Source of the DNA: an uncultured Desulfobulbus sp.
GTDB lineage: Bacteria; Desulfobacterota; Desulfobulbia; Desulfobulbales; Desulfobulbaceae
Assembly: GCA_963664075.1 (NCBI GenBank)
Contig: OY760916.1
Location: forward strand, 4,124,710-4,188,709
Direction: 5' to 3'
Length of the DNA: 64,000 nucleotides
The notes below the pieces were generated by a model. It worked only from the letters and a program-made list of their open reading frames with translations, was not told where the DNA came from and ran no database searches. Position numbers and translations under genes: made by a program. Positions 714-14,273 of the stretch are shown here, in pieces (position 1 is the stretch's first letter; every line of letters begins with the position of its first letter).

Positions 714-1903
714 TTTGCCGCTCCTTTGATGTTCAGAGACTTCATCCCCTGATTCAATGGAAGCCGCTGAATATGTTCGGCAAGAAGAAAACGACCGGCT
801 TCGATTTCAGCCTTCAGTAAATTACATATCTTCAAGGCTTTGTTATAACTCGACATTGAGGTTACCGGCACCTTCTTGCCCATCAGCTCCACCTCTCCCG
901 AACGCAACTCTTCATAACTGTACCGGGCCAGCACCTTACCGGTTTTCTGGGGATAATCTGTAGAGTAGTCAATGACGCAGGCCTGAATATCCCGATCGCG
1001 TACTGCGGCACGCTGCAGAATCTGGGGGTTCAAAATAGGAATAGGAATACCCACGCCGACAGCCAGGGATACCCCATAGCCTTTAAAGCTTAATCCCCGA
1101 ACAAACTCGGGAAGCATCTCTTTCATATTGCCGCTCAAGGCAAGGGTCCCCGCACCTTCGACCGGCACACCGTTGTCCCCACGTTCCACCGCTGAACAGT
1201 GCTGGGTGCCCTCGGCATAGACCAGACCACGCGCACCCGCCAGCCAAACCGGCGTCCCCACACCAATGGTTTCATAGAGGGGGTCATTTAAGAGTGGCGA
1301 GAGTTGCCCGGCAGAACTGTAGGCTATATTGCGCATATTGGCCTTGAGGATACCCATATAGGTGTAGATGCGCTTATCAGAACAGTTCACCGCAACGTTA
1401 TAATTCTGGTAGCAGTTCCGCGGATTGACCATGATTGCCTGGTTCAGATCATTGATATCGAGCATGGTCCGGATTTCCCGGCGGGGATAGTCGTCTGTGC
1501 CATAGGAAAGCCCGCGAAACTCAACCTGGCGGCCTGCGACCAGATCTTCAATGACGTGCCCACCACCGTAGCGAAAGTCCCCGGGATGATCCATGTTGGC
1601 TGGATCATTCTGCCTGAGCTGAGTTGCCCCCAGGTAGGCATCAACTGCAGCAATACCGCTGTAGGCCATAACATCATTGAGCCAGGCCTCGGTGATACGC
1701 ATTTTGGGTGTACTGTGGCCAAAGTTGAGGAAGCAGCCCGATGAACACATGGGGCCAAAGGTGGCGGTGGTGACCACGTCCACCTCCTTGGCGGCGGCTT
1801 CCAGCCCTCGTTTATCCACGTAATCGATCACCTCTTCAGCGGTGAGGACCACCGCCTTCCCCGAGGCAATTTTCTCGTTAATTTCCGCATACGTTTTGGT
1901 CAT
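710..1903 (-). CDS. DUF39 homocysteine biosynthesis protein (L-aspartate semialdehyde sulfurtransferase, MA1821-like), no CBS domains
   Basis: MTKTYAEINEKIASGKAVVLTAEE and VDVVTTATFGPMCSSG signature; adjacent NIL-ferredoxin. Confidence 0.9.
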   Translation of the reverse strand: MTKTYAEINEKIASGKAVVLTAEEVIDYVDKRGLEAAAKEVDVVTTATFGPMCSSGCFLNFGHSTPKMRITEAWLNDVMAYSGIAAVDAYLGATQLRQNDPANMDHPGDFRYGGGHVIEDLVAGRQVEFRGLSYGTDDYPRREIRTMLDINDLNQAIMVNPRNCYQNYNVAVNCSDKRIYTYMGILKANMRNIAYSSAGQLSPLLNDPLYETIGVGTPVWLAGARGLVYAEGTQHCSAVERGDNGVPVEGAGTLALSGNMKEMLPEFVRGLSFKGYGVSLAVGVGIPIPILNPQILQRAAVRDRDIQACVIDYSTDYPQKTGKVLARYSYEELRSGEVELMGKKVPVTSMSSYNKALKICNLLKAEIEAGRFLLAEHIQRLPLNQGMKSLNIKGAAK

Positions 1904-2019
1904 ATTGCATTCTCACAGAGAAAGGTTCTTGGTTTCGTCGCAAAAGCCTTACTATAGACGATTGAAAAAAAACAGCAAGGTGTCAGCATAACTCATGGAA
2001 AAAAGGGGAAAAAAGATCC

Positions 2020-2082
2020 ATACATGAAATTTTCTTGTGCAAGATGCGTTGTTCAGAACCCATCCGCCGTCGCGGATTCAGG
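2020..2082 (+). repeat. Right-end fragment of the 218-bp MITE-like family
   Basis: 2041-2082 matches 22162-22203 at about 35/42 nt (ATGCRTTGTTCAG...CCGCCGTCRCGGATTCAGG). The upstream ATACATGAA is also shared with the full element. Confidence 0.7.
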
Positions 2083-2175
2083 AAAATAACTGTTATCCTC
2101 CTCCCTTATCTGGCAAAATCATCCAAGAAGACTTATCTTCCTAGGATCTGTCCCTCTGACCACAAGGAGAATTGT

Positions 2176-4854
2176 ATGAGCGCCCCCCAGGATTTCAGTC
2201 AGTTCAATCCCCAAGTCACTCTCGAGGCCGGCGGTACCCGCTACACCGTCTTTTCGGTCAAAGCCCTAGAAAGCCTCGGTTACGACTCCATTGATCGCCT
2301 CCCGTACAGCCTTCGCATTCTGCTGGAAAATCTCTTACGCCACTATCCTCAAGGGTTGGTAACGGACGCTGATATTGACAATCTCGCCAGCTGGCAACCA
2401 GAATCCATCAGCTCTGAGGCAGTGCCATTGATGCCCGCACGGGTCATCCTTCAAGATTTCACCGGCGTTCCCGCCCTGGTCGATCTAGCGGCCATGCGCT
2501 CTGCTCTTGCCCGCAGTGGTGGCGATCCAACCACGATGAATCCTTTTATTCCAGCGGATCTGGTCATTGATCACAGTGTCCAGGTGGACAAGTCTGCAAG
2601 TGCCGACTCTTTGGACGTCAATGTCGATATGGAGATGCAGCGCAATCGCGAGCGCTACACCATGCTCCATTGGGGGCAACAGGCGTTTCGAAACTTTCGT
2701 GTGGTCCCCCCGGGGACAGGTATTGTCCACCAGGTAAACCTGGAATACCTGGCCTCTGTCGTGGCCCAAAGGGAGGTCGATGGTGTGCCTGTACTCTTCC
2801 CGGACTCCGTCCTTGGAACAGATTCGCACACCACCATGGTGAACGGCCTGGGGGTTATGGGCTGGGGCGTGGGCGGTATTGAGGCAGAAGCCGTTCTTCT
2901 GGGACAGCCTTACTCGCTGCAGATCCCGGAAGTGGTTGGCGTTCGCCTCAGCGGTGCATTGCCAGCCGGAACCACTGCCACGGATCTGGTACTGACCATC
3001 ACCCGATTTTTACGGCAGAAGGGCGTGGTTGGCCGTTTTGTCGAATTCTTTGGCCCGGGCCTGGCTGCACTGAGCCTGCCTGATCGTGCCACCATCGCCA
3101 ACATGGCTCCTGAGTATGGCGCGACCATGGGCTTTTTCCCGGTGGATAATGAAACCCTGCGCTACCTGCGTGCCAGCGGTCGCCCTGAATCTCTGGTTAA
3201 TCTGGTCGAACAGTACAGTCGAGCCCAGTCCTTTTTCTTTGCCCCGGAAAATCCAGAGCCCAACTATTCGGTGGTCTATGACATTCTGCTGGATGAGGTG
3301 GTTCCCAGTCTGGCTGGCCCCAAACGTCCTCAAGATCTTCTCCCTCTCTCAGCGGTGCGTAAGGATTTTCAACGTCAGTTTGAGACTGAACTGGCAGCCT
3401 CAGCCGCCCCGAAAACCAAAGACATCGTTGGCCGCTTAACGAACGGATCTGTGGTTATTGCCGCTATTACCAGCTGTACCAATACATCAAACCCAGACGT
3501 CATGATTGGTGCGGGGCTGCTGGCGCGCAAAGCTCGCGAGCGTGGTCTCACGCCCAAGTCCTGGGTTAAAACCAGCCTTGCTCCCGGATCCCGGGTGGTG
3601 ACCCGTTATCTCGAGCAAAGTGAGCTCTTGCCTGATCTGGAAGCACTCGGTTTTCAGGTAGTTGGCTATGGATGCACCACCTGTATTGGTAACTCTGGTC
3701 CCCTTGACGAAAATATCGCCACACCTATTCGTGAACAAAACCTGGTGGCAGCAGCAGTCCTTTCAGGCAACCGCAACTTCGAGGCCCGAATTCACCCCAT
3801 GGTCCAGGCAAACTACCTGGGATCGCCTCCGCTGGTGGTGGCATATGCCCTGGCCGGAACCGTCCTGATTGATCTCGAAAAAGAACCACTGGGGACCGAC
3901 GATGACGGTCAGCCAGTTTTTCTTAAAGACATCTGGCCCAGTGCGGAGGAAATCCGTGAGGCAGTACGCCAGAGTATCAAGCCCGATCTCTTTACCGTGA
4001 GTTATGGTTCGGTCTTTGACGGCGATGCCCGCTGGAATGGACTTTCTGCGGGCTCTTCCAACCTCTACCCCTGGGACGGGGAATCCTCCTACATTCGCGA
4101 GCCTCCCTTCTTCCAGGATATGAGTGCCACCCCTGCGCCGGTAACCAACATCGAAGGCGCCCGGGTACTGGCCCTCTTTGGTGACTCCATCACCACGGAC
4201 CATATCAGCCCGGCCGGTGCCATTGGTCCGCAGACACCAGCGGGGCTTTACCTCCAGAGCCTTGGTATTCAACCAACTGACTTTAACAGCTACGGCTCAC
4301 GCCGTGGCAACCACGAAGTCATGATGCGGGGCACCTTTGCCAATATTCGCATTAAAAACCGCATGGTAGACAAAGAGGGAGGACTCACTAAAGCCTGGCC
4401 TGAAGGAGTAGAAATGCCCATCTATGATGCGGCCATGCATTACCAGGAGGCGGGCACACCACTGGTAGTCTTTGCCGGCAAGGATTACGGCACAGGTTCC
4501 TCTCGTGACTGGGCAGCCAAGGGAACCATGCTGCTTGGAGTCAAGGCAGTGATTGCAGCCTCCTTTGAACGTATCCACCGCTCAAACCTGGTCGGTATGG
4601 GGGTTCTGCCGCTTCAATTTAGCGAAGGTGTCGATGCCCAGAGTTTGGGGCTTGAGGGCAGCGAAACCATCACCATCACCGGAATCGATGGCGAGCTGCA
4701 GCCTGGCCAAAAGGTGAATGTACGCATTGATCGGGCCGACGGTCGCACGGAAACTGCCGAGGTTGTGCTCCGCCTGGATAACGCCATGGAGATCGACTAC
4801 TACCGTCAGGGAGGTATTCTCCACAAGGTGCTGCGGCAACGGATTAACGGCTGA
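2176..4854 (+). CDS. acnA: Aconitate hydratase A
   Basis: LQDFTGVPA, DSHTTM, AAITSCTNTSNP, GYGCTTCIGNSG, YGTGSSRDWAAKG. The likely start is ATG 2176 after AAGGAG; the ORF track start at 2035 is probably too long. Confidence 0.97.
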   Translation: MSAPQDFSQFNPQVTLEAGGTRYTVFSVKALESLGYDSIDRLPYSLRILLENLLRHYPQGLVTDADIDNLASWQPESISSEAVPLMPARVILQDFTGVPALVDLAAMRSALARSGGDPTTMNPFIPADLVIDHSVQVDKSASADSLDVNVDMEMQRNRERYTMLHWGQQAFRNFRVVPPGTGIVHQVNLEYLASVVAQREVDGVPVLFPDSVLGTDSHTTMVNGLGVMGWGVGGIEAEAVLLGQPYSLQIPEVVGVRLSGALPAGTTATDLVLTITRFLRQKGVVGRFVEFFGPGLAALSLPDRATIANMAPEYGATMGFFPVDNETLRYLRASGRPESLVNLVEQYSRAQSFFFAPENPEPNYSVVYDILLDEVVPSLAGPKRPQDLLPLSAVRKDFQRQFETELAASAAPKTKDIVGRLTNGSVVIAAITSCTNTSNPDVMIGAGLLARKARERGLTPKSWVKTSLAPGSRVVTRYLEQSELLPDLEALGFQVVGYGCTTCIGNSGPLDENIATPIREQNLVAAAVLSGNRNFEARIHPMVQANYLGSPPLVVAYALAGTVLIDLEKEPLGTDDDGQPVFLKDIWPSAEEIREAVRQSIKPDLFTVSYGSVFDGDARWNGLSAGSSNLYPWDGESSYIREPPFFQDMSATPAPVTNIEGARVLALFGDSITTDHISPAGAIGPQTPAGLYLQSLGIQPTDFNSYGSRRGNHEVMMRGTFANIRIKNRMVDKEGGLTKAWPEGVEMPIYDAAMHYQEAGTPLVVFAGKDYGTGSSRDWAAKGTMLLGVKAVIAASFERIHRSNLVGMGVLPLQFSEGVDAQSLGLEGSETITITGIDGELQPGQKVNVRIDRADGRTETAEVVLRLDNAMEIDYYRQGGILHKVLRQRING

Positions 4855-4866
4855 AACATCTTCTAA

Positions 4867-4907
4867 AACAAGTCAAGCCGGGCAAATGTCACCCGGCTTG
4901 ACTTGTT
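4867..4907. terminator. Bidirectional intrinsic terminator between acnA and the convergent M48 gene
   Basis: Perfect 16-bp inverted repeat AACAAGTCAAGCCGGG/CCCGGCTTGACTTGTT with a 9-nt loop. Confidence 0.8.
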
Positions 4908-4985
4908 ATGATGTATGGACGAGCAAAATGCAGGCATTGTACATCCACCAAAAAAGCTCCTCACTACCAATGAGTGTTCCCTAAT

Positions 4986-5810
4986 TTAGGACTTTTTCGC
5001 CAATGCTGGCGGCAAAGCACGAACCTGGCCTGCAGTATAGCCCTGTTTCCTGCTCAACTCCCCAAGCCGTTTTATCCGTTCCACCGCCTCGGGATGCGAG
5101 GCAAAATAGCTCGTAATCCCTCGTCCTCGCTCCTCATTCTGCATGGCGCTGAAAAATTCCGTCGCCCCGCCCACATGGCCATAACGACAGTTCAGCGCTG
5201 TCAAGGCCAGACTGTCCGCCCGGGATTCCCGTGATCTGGAGTAGCTTGCCGTCCCCAACCCCACGGCCGGCGTGGCTAATTTGGTCAAACCGGAATCCGA
5301 TCCTGTCAAAAAGGCCATCATGGCGGTCAAGACGATGCCGCGCCCCATGCCACTTAAATGATCGCGATGCTTGAAATGCGCCAGCTCATGGGCCAGCACA
5401 AAGGCGAGACCGTTTTCAGATTGAACCTTGTCGAGAATCCCGGAGAGAACGATAATCCGTCCTCCGGGCAAGGCCAGTGCATTCGCGGTATCTGCCTCCA
5501 CCAGATGGACCGTGACTGGATAGCCGACATCGATACAGCGACCAAGTTCGTACACCAACTGCTGAATATCAGCCTCTCCAGGGAGAGGTTTCCCCACAGA
5601 CTCTTTCACGGTAGGGGAGAGGGCCGTAAAAATCTGGGCCTCCATTTTGGGAGAAATCCACATCACTGCCCTGTCCACCAACCAACCGGAGATGACAAAG
5701 ACAGCTATACAGGTCAGTATCACCCCCGCTAGAAGGACTGCAAATTCCTGCAAGGGGCTGTTGTGACTGACGTTGTTATTCTTCTGAGGATAGGAAGGTT
5801 TGAACTCCAT
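4986..5810 (-). CDS. M48 family zinc metallopeptidase, membrane-anchored
   Basis: ANALALPGG, VLAHELAHF (HExxH), YSRSRESRAD, FASHP; N-terminal TM helix. Confidence 0.9.
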   Translation of the reverse strand: MEFKPSYPQKNNNVSHNSPLQEFAVLLAGVILTCIAVFVISGWLVDRAVMWISPKMEAQIFTALSPTVKESVGKPLPGEADIQQLVYELGRCIDVGYPVTVHLVEADTANALALPGGRIIVLSGILDKVQSENGLAFVLAHELAHFKHRDHLSGMGRGIVLTAMMAFLTGSDSGLTKLATPAVGLGTASYSRSRESRADSLALTALNCRYGHVGGATEFFSAMQNEERGRGITSYFASHPEAVERIKRLGELSRKQGYTAGQVRALPPALAKKS

Positions 5811-5816
5811 CTTTTT

Positions 5817-6281
5817 TTATTGAGGCGACGATTGAAAATAGATAGCAGTTCCGTAGGCCAAAACCTCCACACTCCCCAACTGCTTCTTGCCCCCCTTGGA
5901 AATAGAGGAGGTCTCCAGACGGAGATTGATTATCTGATCAGCCTGTGGGCAGGACTCCAGAAGACGGAGCATCGCCTCGCGTCGGGCACGGTCCACCAGG
6001 GTCTCGTAGGCCTGGACCCGCCCGCCAAAAATATTTCGCAGACCAGCCAAGATCTGTTTAAAGTAATCCACAGAGATAACCACGCTTCCCATGACCAATT
6101 CGCTTCGATCAACGGGGCGATCATCCCCCATAACAGTACGCGCTGCGGTGGTTGGACGGCCAAGTTGCTCCTGCTCCCGGCTGATGATCGAGTTGTAATG
6201 CCGTTTTTCAGCAATGCGCCCGACGAAAAAGCCGAGGCTGACGAGGACAAGTAAAAATCCAAGTTGTATGAGCGCTTCCAT
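5817..6281 (-). CDS. YbjQ/UPF0145-family protein with N-terminal TM helix
   Basis: LAGLRNIFGGRVQAYETLVDRARREA...EVLAYGTA. Confidence 0.88.
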   Translation of the reverse strand: MEALIQLGFLLVLVSLGFFVGRIAEKRHYNSIISREQEQLGRPTTAARTVMGDDRPVDRSELVMGSVVISVDYFKQILAGLRNIFGGRVQAYETLVDRARREAMLRLLESCPQADQIINLRLETSSISKGGKKQLGSVEVLAYGTAIYFQSSPQ

Positions 6282-6284
6282 GGG

Positions 6285-6599
6285 CTACTCCACGGTCACA
6301 GCTGTACCGTAGACATACAGCTCCGAGGCCCCCGCAGCGACGGAGCTGGTGGAAAAACGTACATTGACCACTGCGTTGGCCCCCATCTGGGTTGCCTGGG
6401 CTTTCATGCGGGCAATGGATTCGTCCCGGGACTCCTGAAGCAATTCTGTGTACCCTTTGAGTTCACCCCCAACGATATTTTTCAGGCTGGCCATGAAATC
6501 CCGGCCCACATGTTTGGCCCGGACGGTACTGCCGGAGACAATCCCGTGAAAGGCGACGATAGTTTTGCCAGGAATTCCTTCTGTGTTGGACAGCAACAT
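6285..6599 (-). CDS. YbjQ/UPF0145-family protein
   Basis: RDFMASLKNIVGGELKGYTELLQESR...ELYVYGTAV. Confidence 0.92.
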   Translation of the reverse strand: MLLSNTEGIPGKTIVAFHGIVSGSTVRAKHVGRDFMASLKNIVGGELKGYTELLQESRDESIARMKAQATQMGANAVVNVRFSTSSVAAGASELYVYGTAVTVE

Positions 6600-6705
6600 A
6601 GTTCTTCTCCTTCAAGTAAGGCGTGAATAGAAAATTATTTGCTCTTCTGTTATATGCCTACCATAGTCAGTCTCCAAAGAAATTTTACTGTCCTCCAGGA
6701 AGCGT

Positions 6706-8220
6706 ATGTCGACCATCATTCTCACAACAATTAATGCCCGCTATATTCATGCAAGCCTTGGTCTACGCTGGCTCTATGGCAACCTGGGCGAGTTACAGCA
6801 GGAAGCGGCCATTCAGGAGTATACGCTTACGGATCAGATCACCGATATGGCCGAAAAAATATTGGCTTCCCGACCACGGGTGATTGGTCTTGCGGTCTAT
6901 ATCTGGAATGCGGAACAGTTACGAAAGCTCGTCAGTGTACTCAAACGGGTTGCCCCGGAGACGGTTGTGGTTCTGGGAGGCCCCGAGGTCAGTCATCTGC
7001 CCCTGCGCGTGGATATGCGTGAGGCGGATTACCTTATCCAGGGAGAAGGTGAGTTTGCCTTTGCAGCACTCTGCCGCCAGGTGCTTGCGGATCAGCCTCC
7101 CCGAGAGCGCATAATCAAGGCCGAACCGGTTGCGGTGGAAACGCTCAAGTCTGCCTACCCCTTTTTTACTGAACAGGATCTGGCGCACCGGCTGATCTAT
7201 GTCGAGGCCTCGCGCGGTTGCCCCTTTCGCTGCGAATTCTGCCTCTCCTCCATTGATCCGCGAGTCCGTCCCTTTCCCCTCGACTGGTTTTTGAACGAGA
7301 TCGAGTCACTTTGGCAGCGGGGCGCGCGCACCTTTAAGTTTGTGGACCGAACCTTTAACGCCAATCCTGCCACCGCCGAGCGAATCCTTGATTATTTCCT
7401 GACAAAGGAGCCTCCCTATCATGTTCACTTCGAGGTCATTCCCGATCATTTTCCGGAAACGGTCAAAGAACGGTTAACCAGATTTCCTGAAGGTGCCCTT
7501 CAGCTTGAGGTGGGCATTCAGACCCTGGATCCTCAGATTGCCGATAATATTTCAAGACGCCTCAACTTTGAACGTATTCAGGAAAATCTCGCCTTTCTTG
7601 AGCAGGAGACCACAGCCCATCTTCACGTGGATCTGATTGTTGGTCTTCCCGGGGAGTCCATTGAAGGATTTGGTCGTAACCTCAACACCCTGATGTCACT
7701 TGCCCATGGAGAGATCCAGATCGGTATTCTCAAGAAACTCTCCGGCACCGCCATCAACCGCCACGACCAGATTTTCGGCATGGTCTATTCACCTGATCCT
7801 CCCTACGAAATATTACAAAACGATCTCATTAATTTTCAACAGATGCAGGAGATGAAGCGACTGGCAAGGTTCTGGGACCTGGTCTACAACAGCGGCAACT
7901 TCCGTCACACAGCACCGCTGATCTGGAAGGATGGGGATGTATTTAACGGCTTTTTCGACTTCAGCCGCTGGCTTTATAGCCAGACCCTGGCCACCTGGCA
8001 GATCGGCCTGCCTCGGTTGAGTGAACTGCTCTTTACCTATCTCACCCAAGAACAGGGGATGGAAAAAAGTGCGGTTGCCGACAGTCTGGCCGCAGATATT
8101 CTGGTGATTAAAGGGAGGGTACTCCCTAAAACCGTACAGCAATACGTGACCCAGATGCCCGAAACCCGACGCAGCCTGGGAGATTCACTGATGAAACGTC
8201 AAAAACGGCATACAAGCTGA
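6706..8220 (+). CDS. Cobalamin-binding radical SAM protein (C-terminal DUF4080-like domain)
   Basis: N-terminal B12-binding region (VVVLGGPEVS), EASRGCPFRCEFC (CxxxCxxC), DLIVGLPGE. Confidence 0.9.
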   Translation: MSTIILTTINARYIHASLGLRWLYGNLGELQQEAAIQEYTLTDQITDMAEKILASRPRVIGLAVYIWNAEQLRKLVSVLKRVAPETVVVLGGPEVSHLPLRVDMREADYLIQGEGEFAFAALCRQVLADQPPRERIIKAEPVAVETLKSAYPFFTEQDLAHRLIYVEASRGCPFRCEFCLSSIDPRVRPFPLDWFLNEIESLWQRGARTFKFVDRTFNANPATAERILDYFLTKEPPYHVHFEVIPDHFPETVKERLTRFPEGALQLEVGIQTLDPQIADNISRRLNFERIQENLAFLEQETTAHLHVDLIVGLPGESIEGFGRNLNTLMSLAHGEIQIGILKKLSGTAINRHDQIFGMVYSPDPPYEILQNDLINFQQMQEMKRLARFWDLVYNSGNFRHTAPLIWKDGDVFNGFFDFSRWLYSQTLATWQIGLPRLSELLFTYLTQEQGMEKSAVADSLAADILVIKGRVLPKTVQQYVTQMPETRRSLGDSLMKRQKRHTS

Positions 8221-8232
8221 AACCACGATACG

Positions 8233-8310
8233 CAGCCTGGTGCCTACGCTCCGCGTGGGTACCTCACCAGCACGCTCTGCGTGGCCCTGTCACCACTCCC
8301 GGCAGACCTC
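8233..8310. repeat. Direct-repeat copy 1: two REP hairpins plus the 3' end of the RAYT gene
   Basis: 70/78 nt identical, ungapped, to 8891-8968; contains TACGCTCCGCGTG and CACGCTCTGCGTG hairpins. Confidence 0.9.
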
Positions 8311-8823
8311 CACCAGCCCCGGCAACCCGGCGTAATTACGTGCACTCGAATAGCGCCAATGCAGGGGATCGTCTACATAGCCCCGCCTGACCGGATTGTT
8401 GTGGATGTACTCCACCTTCTGCCGCATCATCGCCTCGCCCTGGATCTGTTGCGGGTGGGCCCCCTCCTGCCAAAGCTGATACTGGCGATCCGTCTTAAAG
8501 CCCGCCTTACGCAGGGCCAACTGCTGCAAGATCCACTCAGCCTTGCTTTCCCTGAGCCGATCAATCATTTTCCTGGCTGTGAAGGACTTGAAGTCGCCGA
8601 TCTCCTTGCCCAGATTTTCGGCAGCACCGACCAGGTGCAGATGATTTTCCATAATCACATAGGCATACAGGGTCAACCGCCCATGGTTTTGCAGAAAGCG
8701 CCAGGAATCCAGGAGGATCTCCACCAGGGCCGGGTTACTGAACAGGGGGAGCCAGTTGACCACGGTACAGGTGAGGAAATGGGGGGCTCGGGCGTCAGAG
8801 ATGGTGTAGCGGCTTCTGGCCAT
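8290..8823 (-). mobile_element. REP-associated tyrosine transposase (RAYT/TnpA-REP, Y1 HUH family)
   Basis: HFLTCTVVNW, YVIMENHLHLV (HUH), KVEYIHNNPV (catalytic Tyr); flanked by ACGCTC[CT]GCGT palindromes. Confidence 0.92.
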
Positions 8824-8833
8824 GGGTTCCTCT

Positions 8834-8846
8834 GACGCGGAGCGTC
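8834..8846. repeat. REP-like palindrome just upstream of the RAYT start
   Basis: GACGCGGAGCGTC, the same core as the flanking hairpins in the opposite orientation. Confidence 0.75.
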
Positions 8847-8890
8847 TAGTTTATGTTCCCAACGAGACAAAAAAACTGAGGAGCAAATTC

Positions 8891-8968
8891 CAGCCTGGTA
8901 CCTACGCTCCGCGTGGGGACCTCACCTCCATGCTCTGCGTGGACCTGTCACCACACCCGACAGACCTC
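8891..8968. repeat. Direct-repeat copy 2: two REP hairpins plus a relic RAYT 3' end
   Basis: 70/78 nt identical to 8233-8310. The minus strand reads VEVCRVW-stop, against VEVCREW-stop in the RAYT. Confidence 0.9.
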
Positions 8969-11916
8969 TACAATGTATCAAGCAGCATCCGCACTTTATT
9001 CGCAAGAGCCGTATGGGAAAAGGGTTTTTGAATGAACTGAATCCCCTGCTCAAGCACCCCCTGATGAGCAATAATATCAGCCGTATATCCAGACATGAAC
9101 AAACTCTTTGCATGAGGGTGTTCTTCCAACACCCGCTGCACCAGCTCACGACCATTCATCTCCGGCATGACCACATCGGTGAGGACAAGATCGATGTTTC
9201 CGGCATAGACAGTGCTTTTATGCACCGCATCATGGGGAGAGGTTGAGGCGATGACCGTATACCCCAGGTGTTCCAGCATGGCCTTTGTCATTTCTAAAAT
9301 TTCTGGCTCGTCTTCCACCACCAGGATTGTTTCTGTCCCCCCCACCGTCTGTACGACTGTCTCCCTGACCTCCTCGTGGGCAGATTCTTCAACCCGGGGG
9401 ATATACACTGTAAAAACGGTTCCTTGTCCCGGCTCACTATAGACATTCACAAAACCGTCATTCTGGCGGACAATGCCATAAACCGTGGCCAGCCCCAGAC
9501 CTGTCCCCTGGCCCACAATCTTTGTGGTGAAAAAAGGTTCGAACACCTGAGTCACGGTGTCCTTATCCATACCGCTTCCGTTATCGGCCACGGAAATCCG
9601 AACATAGTCACCGGGAACAAATCCTGTATGCGCCGCACAGTAGGTTGCATCAAAACTGCAATTTTGTGTCTCCACTATAATGGTGCCAACTCCTGCAATG
9701 GCATCCCGCGCATTGACACAGAGATTGGCCAGGATCTGATCAATCTGTGAAGGATCCGCCTTCACTGACCCAAGCTCCTCTTCGGGCAACCAGGTGAGGG
9801 TAATATCCTCGCCGATGAGCCGCCGCAAAATCGAAAGCATATTTTCGATGGTGGTATTGAGGTTCAATAACTTAGGGGCAATGGGTTGTTTTCGGGCAAA
9901 AGCGAGCAGCTGGCGGGTCAAATCAGCAGAACGATCCACAATGGTGCGGATGGCCTGAAAACGATGATAATCGGGATCTGTGGGGTCACGTTTGAGCATG
10001 GCCATATCGGCATGGCCCTGGACCACCATGAGCATATTATTAAAATCATGGGCTATGCCACCGGCAAGCCGGGCAACGGATTCCATCTTCTGTGATTGCA
10101 GCAGCTGGGCTTCCAGGGTTGCATGTTCTTCTTCAGCCTGCTTGCGCTCACTGATATCGACATGGGTACCGACCATACGCAGGGCCTTTCCGTTCTCATC
10201 CCGTGCTGCCGCTTTGCCCCGCCCCTGAATCCATTTCCAACTTCCGTCTCGACTGCGCAGTCGATACTCAACAATAAAGGATTCGCATCGTCCTTCAATG
10301 CAGTCCGTGTTGGCAGCTATAACGGATTCCCGATCCTCTGGATGAAGCATCTCCATCCAGACATTGGCATCCTGGGGTTTTTCCTCCCCCTCGTACCCCA
10401 GCATGGCCCAGTAATTGGGACTGTAATAGACCGAGTTTTCCTGAATGTTCCAGTCCCAGAGACCATCCTTGGTGGCCTCCATGGCCAGCCGAAACCGCTC
10501 TTCACCAACCCGCAGTGCCTCCTCGGCCTGTCTGCGTTCGGCCATGGCCCGTGCCTGCTGCATATTCTGATAGGCAGAGAGGGAGAGTTGGTTGGCAAGG
10601 GTATGCAGGGCATTAGCTATCTGTTCAAAACGTTTTCGCTCCATTGAAGGAACTTCCGCGTAGGCCTCCATGAAGACCTCTTCATCAACGCCGATTTTCT
10701 GCGCATACTGTCGTAGAGAGGGCTCATCCTGATGCTCGTTGCGCACCTGCCCGATAAGCCAGTTGGCCACGTGATGCCCGCCCACGCTGATACTGGCCCC
10801 TGCATCCCAAAGCCCTCCACTGAGACAGAGCTGGACAATGGGGCCCTCGGGATGATGTCGTCCTAAAATCGCATCAGATCTGAAACAGTTGGCACAGCCG
10901 ACCTCTGTCTGACGGATGATACCGCTGCACAGACGTGTAAAATTACTGGGCCGGGTTATGGGGACGCCATCGGTCCTGGTAATGATGGAGGCAACATTGG
11001 TGGCATTGGCGAACTCATCCTGAATCTGCTGAATACGATCGAGATCAAAAAGTTCTTCAAAACTGAACGAACTCTCCCGGGTCGCTGGACAGGTGAGGGC
11101 GACAAGACGTTTTTCCAGAGCTTCTTCCAGCTGTTTAAATTCGGTGATATCACGAAATTCGACCACCCGTACCGTCTTCCCTTTGTAGGGAATGTTGGCA
11201 CCACGCAGACGGACAGGATACTGGCTGCCGTCTTTACGCTCAGCCAAAGCCTCATAGGCTGCATCATAACCCCTTTGTATATTTCGCCTGACCAAATCGC
11301 GCGTTTTTGCAGCAATGAGTTGCAGTCCATCCATGCCGATCAGTTCATCCAGGGGGTATCCGGTCTGCTCGGCCAATCCCTGGTTACAATCAAGAATCAC
11401 CCCTTGATCATGAATGGCGATACCACCAAAGGAGGCATTGTGCAGGGCTCGAAACCTCTCTTCACTTTCACGTAAAACCTGCTCATGTTCTTTTTGCTGA
11501 GTAATATCCTGAAAAAAACAGTGGGTTTGGAGAAAAGTTCCATCTTGTGCTGTGGCAATTTTCCCATGAAAAGAGACAAAAATGCGACTGCCGTCCTGCT
11601 TGAGCAGAGCAAATTCCACCCCGGAGATTTCACCTGCCTGTTTAAAACGAGCAAAGTTGACCTGAAACGCTGCGTGGGCCTCAGGAGAGAGAAAAACGGT
11701 AAAATTTTTCCCCAAGACCTCTTCACGAGACCACCCCAGTATGTCGAGCCAGCGCTGGTTTACATCAATGAGATCACCATCAATGCTGAGCGATTGATAG
11801 GCCAATGAAGATTGCTCATGCAGCTGACGAAGTTGTTGACACTCTGCGCGCAAGGCATCAATCTGCTGATGCAATGCAATGTACTGCTGTGATTCCTGCC
11901 CGGTTATTGTATCCAT
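8968..11916 (-). CDS. Hybrid sensor histidine kinase/response regulator (PAS-PAS-PocR-PAS-HisKA-HATPase-REC)
   Basis: PocR-like region (IQDEFANAT...CLSGGLWDAGASISVGG), GIAHDFNN H-box, GQGTGLGLA G2 box, VLTDVVMPEMNG receiver. Confidence 0.92.
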   Translation of the reverse strand: MDTITGQESQQYIALHQQIDALRAECQQLRQLHEQSSLAYQSLSIDGDLIDVNQRWLDILGWSREEVLGKNFTVFLSPEAHAAFQVNFARFKQAGEISGVEFALLKQDGSRIFVSFHGKIATAQDGTFLQTHCFFQDITQQKEHEQVLRESEERFRALHNASFGGIAIHDQGVILDCNQGLAEQTGYPLDELIGMDGLQLIAAKTRDLVRRNIQRGYDAAYEALAERKDGSQYPVRLRGANIPYKGKTVRVVEFRDITEFKQLEEALEKRLVALTCPATRESSFSFEELFDLDRIQQIQDEFANATNVASIITRTDGVPITRPSNFTRLCSGIIRQTEVGCANCFRSDAILGRHHPEGPIVQLCLSGGLWDAGASISVGGHHVANWLIGQVRNEHQDEPSLRQYAQKIGVDEEVFMEAYAEVPSMERKRFEQIANALHTLANQLSLSAYQNMQQARAMAERRQAEEALRVGEERFRLAMEATKDGLWDWNIQENSVYYSPNYWAMLGYEGEEKPQDANVWMEMLHPEDRESVIAANTDCIEGRCESFIVEYRLRSRDGSWKWIQGRGKAAARDENGKALRMVGTHVDISERKQAEEEHATLEAQLLQSQKMESVARLAGGIAHDFNNMLMVVQGHADMAMLKRDPTDPDYHRFQAIRTIVDRSADLTRQLLAFARKQPIAPKLLNLNTTIENMLSILRRLIGEDITLTWLPEEELGSVKADPSQIDQILANLCVNARDAIAGVGTIIVETQNCSFDATYCAAHTGFVPGDYVRISVADNGSGMDKDTVTQVFEPFFTTKIVGQGTGLGLATVYGIVRQNDGFVNVYSEPGQGTVFTVYIPRVEESAHEEVRETVVQTVGGTETILVVEDEPEILEMTKAMLEHLGYTVIASTSPHDAVHKSTVYAGNIDLVLTDVVMPEMNGRELVQRVLEEHPHAKSLFMSGYTADIIAHQGVLEQGIQFIQKPFSHTALANKVRMLLDTL

Positions 11917-12052
11917 TTACCTGTGGTCATACCGTTCATAGTGGAAGGGTATCGGCATTTTAGATCAGTGCTTTTTTTGCAGTTAATCTGTACTTTTACT
12001 ATTACAAACCTTAGAGCTCTGCCATAACACGAGTCGCAATAAATTTCTGTAT

Positions 12053-12095
12053 AAAAAAAAAGCCACCAGCGACACTCAAAGGTCGAAGGTGGCTT
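12053..12095 (-). terminator. Intrinsic terminator downstream of the MCP gene
   Basis: AAGCCACC...GGTGGCTT stem followed on the minus strand by a 9-T run. Confidence 0.65.
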
Positions 12096-12141
12096 GTAGA
12101 GTTGTGCTGAACAATAGGCAGAAGAGTGGAGAGTGCTTTCT

Positions 12142-13935
12142 TCAGACCGTAAATTTTTCAATCATCTTCTTCAGTACCTCCGCCATCGCATCAAGTTTGG
12201 AGACATTGTCTGAAATCTGCCGACTCCCCTCTGTTACATCCTTTGCGGCCTGATTGACCTCGTTCAGATCCAGATCTATTTGCCGAGACATGGCGCTACT
12301 TTCTGCAATCCGTTCGTTAATCTCTTCGACGACGCTGGATGCCTGACTGATATTGCTTGAAATTTCATCGGTTGCGGCCGTTTGCTCTGTCACAGATTCC
12401 GCGACCAGCAGAGTAATCTGATTTATCTCCGTAATTACCTCTGCCATACCACTTATTTCTGTCAATGTGCTACCAATTGCACGCTGTACCGTCTCGATTT
12501 GCTGTTGTATCTCGCTAGTGGCACTGGCTGTCTGGACAGATAGATCTTTGATTTCATTGGCCACAATGGCAAAACCTTTGCCCGCCTCTCCAGCACGGGC
12601 AGCTTCAATGGTCGCGTTCAAGGCAAGAAGATTGGTCTGATCCGATATTTCGGCGATGGTGGCGGTCACCTTATCGATATCCTGAGCAATGGACCGGAGT
12701 TGATCAATCTGCAGGGTCGCCTGCTCCGAACGTTTCACCCCCTGTTCAGATACCCGCCTGGCATTATCGCTACTATGGGATATTTCCTGCAGGGTGGTAC
12801 TCATCTCCTCGGTTGCCGAGGCCATAATCGCAATGTTGGAAGACGCCTCTTCCATGGCGGCTGCGATGGCATTCATGTTATCGCTCATCACCGTACTTGA
12901 GGAGGAGACCCTGTCTGTTTTTGAGGAAGCAGCCACAGAGGTTCCTGAAATATCTTGTGATATATTCAAAAGATGGGCCGACGCATTGGTGATGGTATCG
13001 GTGTTACCGGCAACCTGGCTGATCATCTTTTGCAGGTTTTCAATGAACTTGTTGAAATTGTCTACCAGCACACCAATTTCGTCGTTATTGAAGGCATCAA
13101 GTCGCTGGGTCAGATCAGCATCCCCGGAGGCAATATTTTCCAGGCTTTTTGTCACCGAGCTAATGGGTTTGGCCACCGCATAGTGGACAAGAAAATAAAA
13201 GGCAAACATGGCACACCCCAGCCCGACCAAGGTAATGACAAACGCCTTGATCAGGTCTTTGCGCAATTTGCTGTCAGCTGGTTTCAGTGACTGCACAATT
13301 TCAAAGGCACCATGAATTTCCCCAACCTGCCAATTTTCCATGGTTCCCCCGGTGGGATCCTTCCCTCCCTCAAGTCCCCAGAGTTGTACCGAGGTAGCTG
13401 GATCGCCATGGCACATCAAACAGGTTTGGCTCAGACGAATAGGTAAAAAATAACGAACCGCATTCTGCTCTTCATCTATGACGAAATACTCGTCGAGGTT
13501 CTCCTCTTTGATTTTCTTTAATGCCGGGGCCTCTATCTTATATTGCAGCCCATAGTCAGGTAAATTCTTAGGGTTTCGAGGCTCAAATTTAGGAACCCGC
13601 AAGACATAGTCGCCCTGTTCCGCCTTTTTCATGGCCGCTTTCCAGGCGGTAACCACAGGGACCATATTGAGCACGTGGTCCAATTTTCCTTCCTGCGACA
13701 ATGTGCGGACCTGTTCGGTCGTGAACAATCCCTGCTCCCATTTATCATCCATCTCCTGGCGTACAGATTCAGCCGCCAAAGCTATACTTCGCGCTTTGTC
13801 AACATAGGCCGTCACCGTATTATTATGGATCATGCGGGCAAAAAAGGACATCAGCCCAAAGCCAAGCAAGGCGACGATAATAATCCCTATGGATAAAAAC
13901 TTGCTTGTCAGGGAGAGGTTGCGCAGAAATTTCAT
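12142..13935 (-). CDS. Methyl-accepting chemotaxis protein with periplasmic DUF3365-like heme-c domain
   Basis: Two TM helices, CLMCH (CxxCH) in the periplasmic part, HAMP domain, [31 protein letters not shown] signalling motif. Start at 13935 (alternative 13953). Confidence 0.92.
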
Positions 13936-14273
13936 AAGCCTCCGGCAAATCACAAGGTTGCTGACGAGGAGATACTCAATTCTGAGGGTCTCACTGTTCG
14001 AATAAAATCTATCTCAATGAAGAAATATTATCACAGCCCATCACCAGCAGGCAATGGGACCTATTTAAAAAATAACGAATTACCAAATAGTTACCTTGCC
14101 AGATATCTGAAATATAACCTTATGAAACTACAGGAAAAGTCCCATTTTTTAGTGACCGGCCATCAATTTATAGCAAATAATTCAAGGAATTTTGTATGCA
14201 TTCCAGCGCCTCCTTCAGCGCACAGTCCTGACACAACAGGAGAATTTTTCTTGTGTCCCTTAACCTGACCGAT

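Follow-up and report, generated by a model that had tools for sequence, protein, structure and literature searches.

How does a single-copy transposase gene come to be bracketed by a direct repeat that includes its own 3′ coding end? The question is raised by a REP-associated tyrosine transposase (RAYT; REP, repetitive extragenic palindrome) gene in the genome of an uncultured Desulfobulbus sp. (G000; 4,775,109 bases), within a window of 64,000 nucleotides (nt) whose coordinates are used here. RAYTs are regarded as immobile, single-copy and vertically inherited genes, whose only visible activity is the spread of REPINs (REP doublets forming hairpins). From comparison with relatives and with 80 homologous loci, we lean on balance towards reading the locus as the footprint of local duplication and decay, in which a RAYT unit was duplicated head-to-tail and most of one copy was then deleted.

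A repeat search found that positions 8233–8313 (copy A) and 8891–8971 (copy B) form a direct repeat of 81 nt with 72/81 (89%) identity, which brackets the RAYT open reading frame (ORF) at 8290–8823 on the minus strand. An earlier note on this DNA, made from the letters alone, had described the same repeat 3 nt shorter (70/78; 8233–8310 and 8891–8968). Searched by blastn-short against the complete 4,775,109 bases, the 81-mer was present in two copies only, A and B (E = 8e-20 between the copies), and all other matches were of 16 nt or less; the repeat is therefore not a product of chance. Folded as plus-strand single-stranded DNA, each copy forms two hairpins, just as the note had proposed, around ACGCTCCGCGT and A(C/T)GCTCTGCGT, and the G-T wobbles in these hairpins favour the plus strand. 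Direct-type REP doublets are denoted D below and inverted ones I. A third REP hairpin, inverted and formed by GACGCGGAGCGTC, lies directly upstream of the RAYT ATG and had been overlooked in the note. It belongs to an inverted doublet, I2, whose second hairpin was lost through a 14-nt deletion in G000 between 8861 and 8862.

Next to its doublet each copy contains the RAYT 3′ coding end, hereafter the tail. On the minus strand the RAYT 3′ end in A reads (CTG) GTG GAG GTC TGC CGG GAG TGG TGA and the relic in B reads (ATT) GTA GAG GTC TGT CGG GTG TGG TGA, with ATT at 8972–8974. The two tails are identical at 21 of 24 nt; GTG/GTA and TGC/TGT are synonymous differences, and GAG/GTG is non-synonymous. 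The reading of the ends as LVEVCREW-stop and IVEVCRVW-stop with synonymous differences was thus right in that both hold the last RAYT codons and two differences are silent, but the Ile codon lies outside the repeat, which leaves a relic of seven codons plus the stop, and the third difference changes the residue. The idea that the synonymous differences signal coding selection on the relic was rejected, as two of three changes carry no statistical weight. The TAG stop codon (8968–8970) of the neighbouring hybrid sensor histidine kinase gene falls within the relic in B, an overlap already noticed in the note.

If the 24-nt tail were part of a REP/REPIN unit into which the RAYT ORF merely reads, nothing upstream of the gene would be RAYT-derived. 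Three observations fit this: the REP doublet begins 1–6 nt past the stop codon; the stop codon sits in a hairpin stem in the closest outgroup homolog locus (L036, from an Anaerolineae metagenome-assembled genome (MAG), G041, with a RAYT of 70% amino acid (aa) identity); and coverage of RAYT by the NCBIfam model NF047646 stops at residue 159. However, the C-terminal motif GL[ILV]xVxTxW-stop is kept in about 60 of 80 RAYT homologs (from Anaerolineae, Planctomycetota, Cyanobacteria, Chromatiaceae and others), whatever the REP sequence, the REPs of these homologs differing from one another. Doublet D1, beside the radical SAM gene, carries no tail in Desulfobulbus rhabdoformis DSM 8777 (G006), and the same is true of D1 in L116, a contig from ENA. 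In the G041 genome, the RAYT-flanking repeat has 96 matches, of which only those sharing a contig with the RAYT have a tail; the approximately 90 dispersed REPs begin after the stop codon and lack it. Because the C-terminal motif is conserved across phyla and both D1 and the dispersed REPs are tail-less, the tail is shown to be of coding origin. The tail of B is a genuine RAYT 3′ coding relic, as the note had held, and not part of a dispersed REP unit; we consider the opposite explanation very improbable.

The REP core ACGCTC[CT]GCGT given in the note occurs three times in G000, always at the RAYT locus, and counts of the 81-mer, the core and 16-mers over 4.78 Mb revealed no dispersed REP/REPIN population. 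G000 thus has no other doublets on which the extra nucleotides might be found. In D. rhabdoformis the repeat is likewise confined to the RAYT locus. In view of this lack of a dispersed population, B is not an ordinary REPIN copy. The commonest 16-mers of G000 (27–31 copies, e.g. CCCCTTCACGGGGGCG..GGATTGAAAC and ATCGGGGCATTCCTTC) resemble two families of clustered regularly interspaced short palindromic repeats (CRISPR), and no REP-like high-copy family was seen.

The G000 gene is classified as a RAYT on several grounds: its model score and catalytic motifs, its copy number and vertical inheritance, and the inverted REPs at its flanks. The predicted protein scores 97 bits with NF047646 (REP_Tyr_transpos; cutoff 80, E = 9e-28), and residues H61 and H63 (HUH motif) and Y139 do not vary in the alignment of 22 homologs. 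A profile built from this alignment matched E. coli TnpArep (4ER8; E = 3e-5) with both motifs aligned; a single-sequence phmmer search of PDB with the protein returned nothing. Pfam Y1_Tnp (PF01797) scored 15.7 bits, below its cutoff of 23. One tblastn match was found in G000, and the gene is under purifying selection, with a ratio of non-synonymous to synonymous substitution rates (dN/dS) of about 0.13 against D. rhabdoformis. One commonly cited RAYT feature, flanking REPs that are highly repeated across the genome, is lacking in G000 and D. rhabdoformis and present in G041.

The RAYT protein cluster at 90% identity has five members: G000, D. rhabdoformis, L116 and two contigs from JGI (L117 and L118), the last three all being metagenome contigs. 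No genome closer to G000 than D. rhabdoformis was found in this cluster or by pattern scans of the genome collection, which returned D. rhabdoformis only, and of metagenomes, where the first scan gave 0 matches and the second 6, all unrelated. The radical SAM–RAYT–kinase locus is common to the four relatives, each available context covering one flank (kinase or radical SAM) or the two together. As the same radical SAM–kinase site was found in every relative, RAYT has not moved and is resident at a fixed orthologous site. This goes against movement of the RAYT, or its re-insertion at its own REP site, as the note had suggested. Its other proposal, that an earlier RAYT was overwritten by the kinase region, fares no better: the kinase is syntenic beside RAYT in the four relatives, and it is rather the relic that has encroached upon the variable last codons of the kinase. 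No empty site was found; the next-closest genome with an ortholog of the radical SAM gene (G020, 79% aa identity) has other downstream genes and no REP there.

The architecture of the site is not identical among these genomes; neither of the two findings that the note had named as refuting its reading, the extra 28 nt in all REP doublets or uniform architecture in relatives, was obtained. In 4/4 relatives the kinase stop codon is followed by 11 to 22 nt, TTGTCTCGTT, an intact I2, a ribosome-binding site and the ATG, without B, and in G000 a 20-nt spacer and B, about 100 nt in all, take the place of about 20–30 nt in the relatives. The kinase ends in ...MLLDTL-stop in G000 and in ...MLLDASQYL-stop or ...MLLDEPQAP-stop in the relatives, the G000 TAG being aligned with their CAG. 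In distant kinase orthologs LLD is followed by anything from 2 to 12 residues, so the shortened G000 end is probably harmless; no polarity can be taken from the kinase end. At the other side of RAYT, D. rhabdoformis and L116 have an additional mini-unit without RAYT, [I1 - 81 nt - D1], which separates the RAYT doublet D2 from the radical SAM gene, whereas G000 has a single doublet there; the left part of A is continuous with the radical SAM flank, like D1 in D. rhabdoformis. Each lineage has thus rearranged the REP array of this one locus in its own way.

The relic also holds information on the past of the gene. Its Val codon (GTG) is that of the intact genes of D. rhabdoformis, L116 and L118, while the G000 RAYT has a derived GAG (Glu), and its TGT agrees with L116. 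From these matches to the relatives rather than to the G000 gene, B keeps an older state of the RAYT 3′ end.

Related arrangements recur in the RAYT family. In the survey of 80 homolog loci, tandem RAYTs, RAYT fragments and tail-plus-REP arrays were found at about 10%; the 3′ flank is repeated within 3 kb at 71/80, at least 12 coding nt are repeated together with a REP at six, and longer RAYT fragments are carried by five. A congener of G000 (G001) has two RAYTs, with 55% aa identity to the G000 RAYT, in a tandem repeat with a period of 2,952 nt; a 68-aa C-terminal RAYT fragment follows the second and 28-aa N-terminal fragments precede each. These tandem RAYTs are densely surrounded by REP-like palindromes of at least four kinds (e.g. 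GGTACCCATGCGTCGCATGGGTACC and TTCCCATGCGGCGCATGGGA), at 2100–7200 of locus L035 (G001:C3:1583000-1593000), which resembles a nursery of REPs in the manner of bacterial interspersed mosaic elements (BIMEs). Tandem copies of [tail + REP] lie downstream of RAYT at L043, L053 and L057 without a second gene, and an inverted 34-aa C-terminal RAYT relic lies upstream at L107.

A further parallel was found at L036, where five tandem units of [I doublet - about 15 nt resembling the last five RAYT codons - D doublet] are located directly upstream of RAYT. These look like internally deleted RAYT units, and B, the spacer and the I2 remnant of G000 have the geometry of a junction between two such units. 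The inverted REP left end, TCGTTCC-N-ACGCTCC(A)GCGT-N-GGAAC, differs little among Desulfobulbus, the Anaerolineae MAG and a Planctomycetaceae MAG (L036, L107, G001, D. rhabdoformis and window 8834–8861), which suggests that the REP sequence is co-conserved with this RAYT subfamily across phyla.

The following scenario of duplication and decay accounts for these comparisons most economically. The ancestral unit, in RAYT orientation, would have been [inverted REP doublet - RAYT - direct REP doublet], fixed between the radical SAM gene and the hybrid kinase. It would have been duplicated head-to-tail, with the I and D doublets supplying the homology, after which the kinase-proximal copy would have lost all but its last 24 coding nt and REP doublet. 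The deletion would also have cut into the final kinase codons, which are dispensable, so that the kinase ORF now ends with the TAG in the relic. B, the spacer and the damaged I2 would then be the leftover duplication junction, and the rearrangement would have been due to REP-REP recombination or slippage and not to RAYT catalysis. That a local unit can be duplicated in tandem and lose its interior is indicated by the mini-units of D. rhabdoformis and L116. We infer the former full second RAYT, the order of events and the enzymology; the note's earlier or tandem RAYT gains credit from the tandem RAYTs and fragments of the congener, but a full second copy has not been seen in G000.

Several points weigh against this scenario. 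No trace of a second RAYT body was found in G000, the spacer between B and I2 is not significantly similar to the D2–I1 junction of D. rhabdoformis (p = 0.35) or L116 (p = 0.07), and the 81-nt interior of the D. rhabdoformis mini-unit has no similarity to RAYT. The RAYT of G000 has 91–93% nt identity to those of the four relatives, which share 94–97% among themselves; with G000 thus being the outgroup, gain of B in G000 and its loss in the other four are equally parsimonious. The divergence between A and B (9/81 overall and 3/24 in the tail) is about half of the synonymous divergence between the RAYTs of G000 and D. rhabdoformis, but 9/81 is too small a difference to date the event, and selection on the hairpins blurs dating. 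The lack of a RAYT body remnant would also fit a copy to the kinase side of no more than about 100 nt, comprising the final 24 nt of RAYT, the REP doublet and some adjoining bases, with no second full RAYT involved, through template switching or slippage at the REP hairpins in replication or through ectopic gene conversion seeded by REP homology. In its favour, A and B share the left edge CAGCCT, the short tandem [tail + REP] segments of L043, L053 and L057 offer parallels, and the adjacent 14-nt hairpin deletion shows that slippage has occurred at the locus. However, the family includes longer relics and complete tandem RAYTs, D. rhabdoformis and L116 show a whole-unit tandem with internal deletion at this same locus, and about 20 nt of unexplained spacer goes with B; we therefore rate a short-patch copy as possible but rather unlikely.

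RAYT itself might instead have made the junction, by cutting single-stranded DNA near the REP hairpins and attaching the unit's 3′ end to the 5′ side, in a circle or head-to-tail as in IS200/IS605 excision, so that B, the spacer and I2 would be a fossil of self-mobilisation. Y1 transposases of the IS608 type are known to form a circular intermediate in which the right end is joined to the left, an analogy in favour of the idea; the HUH motif and the tyrosine are intact in a gene under purifying selection, and the order tail - D doublet - short spacer - I doublet - RAYT is found independently in G000 and in the Anaerolineae MAG. Against this, the single-copy gene occupies an identical site in every relative, G000 has no further copies, the flanks of A and B share no cleavage motif at their boundaries and tail lengths vary among the L036 units, and we find this origin for the G000 locus improbable. 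A broader form of the idea, to which we give little credence, is that the order tail - D - spacer - I - RAYT, including its five-fold occurrence in the Anaerolineae MAG, may represent fossil junctions made by RAYT, the mini-units being REPINs at birth by internal deletion. Were it correct, the junctions would document directly in sequence that REPINs arose from RAYT flanks, as has been proposed, and that a 'domesticated' RAYT retains some capacity to mobilise itself. Duplication and decay remains the reading we prefer.

The features of the locus are listed in Table 1. Scans of 8000–9200 with Rfam and for promoters and terminators gave nothing informative, and the part of the spacer (8862–8890) not shared with the relatives had no significant match elsewhere. 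An antisense open frame of 184 aa (8281–8835, plus strand) spans the whole RAYT gene and is probably a by-product of composition. In L116 the radical SAM ortholog (1756–3273) was called as two ORFs (DUF4080, 265 aa; B12-binding, 133 aa), possibly reflecting a pseudogene or an error of assembly. Between G000 and D. rhabdoformis the synonymous rate (dS) was 0.22 for RAYT (proportion of synonymous differences, pS, 0.19), 0.72 for the radical SAM gene and 1.10 for the kinase. RAYT is therefore 3–5 times below its two adjacent genes; a methyl-accepting chemotaxis protein gene (12142–13953) is likewise low, at 0.31. Either RAYTs evolve unusually slowly, or the region (neighbours 4986–13953) is a recombination mosaic.

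Table 1. Features of the RAYT locus (window coordinates)
Feature	Position	Strand	Description
B12-binding radical SAM / DUF4080 gene	6706..8220	+	Pfam PF02310, PF04055, PF13311; flanks the RAYT unit on the left; synteny kept in G006 and L116
Repeat copy A	8233..8313		6-nt lead CAGCCT; D doublet with hairpins at about 8239-8263 and 8271-8283; RAYT stop and last 7 codons at 8290-8313
RAYT	8290..8823	-	177 aa, intact, single-copy; H61, H63 (HUH) and Tyr139 conserved
I2 remnant, inverted REP doublet	8834..8861		Hairpin GACGCGGAGCGTC (8834-8846) intact, second hairpin destroyed, as judged against G006, L116, L117 and L118, where the doublet is intact
Spacer	8862..8890		29 nt; first 9 nt, ACGAGACAA, orthologous to the I2 flank of relatives; remaining ~20 nt, including an A7 run, unmatched
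Repeat copy B	8891..8971		CAGCCT; D doublet; relic of RAYT stop and 7 codons at 8948-8971 (VEVCRVW-stop); absent from four relatives
Hybrid sensor histidine kinase	8968..11916	-	PAS-PocR-PAS-HisKA-HATPase-REC (Pfam); stop TAG in relic

The G000 locus resembles known RAYT-REP/REPIN systems, such as E. coli TnpArep with REP/BIME and that of P. fluorescens SBW25, in having a single-domain Y1 transposase with HUH and Tyr motifs, in single copy and kept vertically at one locus (PMC3116915, PMC5581495). As in those systems the gene is flanked by inverted short palindromes, which are intact in D. rhabdoformis, L116 and L117, the 5′ doublet of G000 being short of one hairpin; and its substitution rate is low relative to neighbouring genes, as reported for some RAYT groups (PMC5581495). 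Bertels et al. 2017 described RAYT groups with a low abundance of flanking 16-mers and unusually slow evolution (PMC5581495). Unlike those systems, G000 and D. rhabdoformis have no dispersed REP/REPIN population, with palindromes at the RAYT locus only, in 2–4 doublets, and one flank in G000 holds a direct copy of the other, including 24 coding nt. A conserved RAYT under purifying selection with no REP population to serve bears on the question of why RAYTs are retained. The locus further suggests that a RAYT unit itself can be duplicated locally and then erode while the gene keeps one chromosomal address. What this adds to known RAYT biology is modest, namely that the mini-units with tails next to RAYTs have the appearance of RAYT units that lost their interior, an increment for the specialist and not a new system.

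The Y1 HUH transposase of the IS200/IS605 family (e.g. IS608, with subterminal hairpins at its left and right ends, LE and RE) offers a second comparison: by analogy hairpins at both ends would be recognised on one strand, and in G000 similar hairpins stand in direct arrangement on either side of the gene, in A and B. The G000 gene differs in its sub-threshold Y1_Tnp score, its single copy and fixed site and the lack of any sign of transposition, and the flanks in the relatives are inverted, not direct. The mini-units, [I1 - 81 nt - D1] in D. rhabdoformis and L116 and the five [I - 15-nt tail - D] units of L036, keep their ends and lose the gene, as in the formation of miniature inverted-repeat transposable elements (MITEs) by internal deletion, and B corresponds to the 3′ half of such a unit; unlike MITEs they stay in tandem beside the parent gene, at least in Desulfobulbus. 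An origin of REPINs from RAYT-flanking palindromes has been proposed (PMC3116915). A replicating population is absent here, but B with the I2 remnant, and D2 with I1 in D. rhabdoformis, have the REPIN geometry of two inverted REPs and a short spacer, and the eroded mini-units resemble starting material for REPINs.

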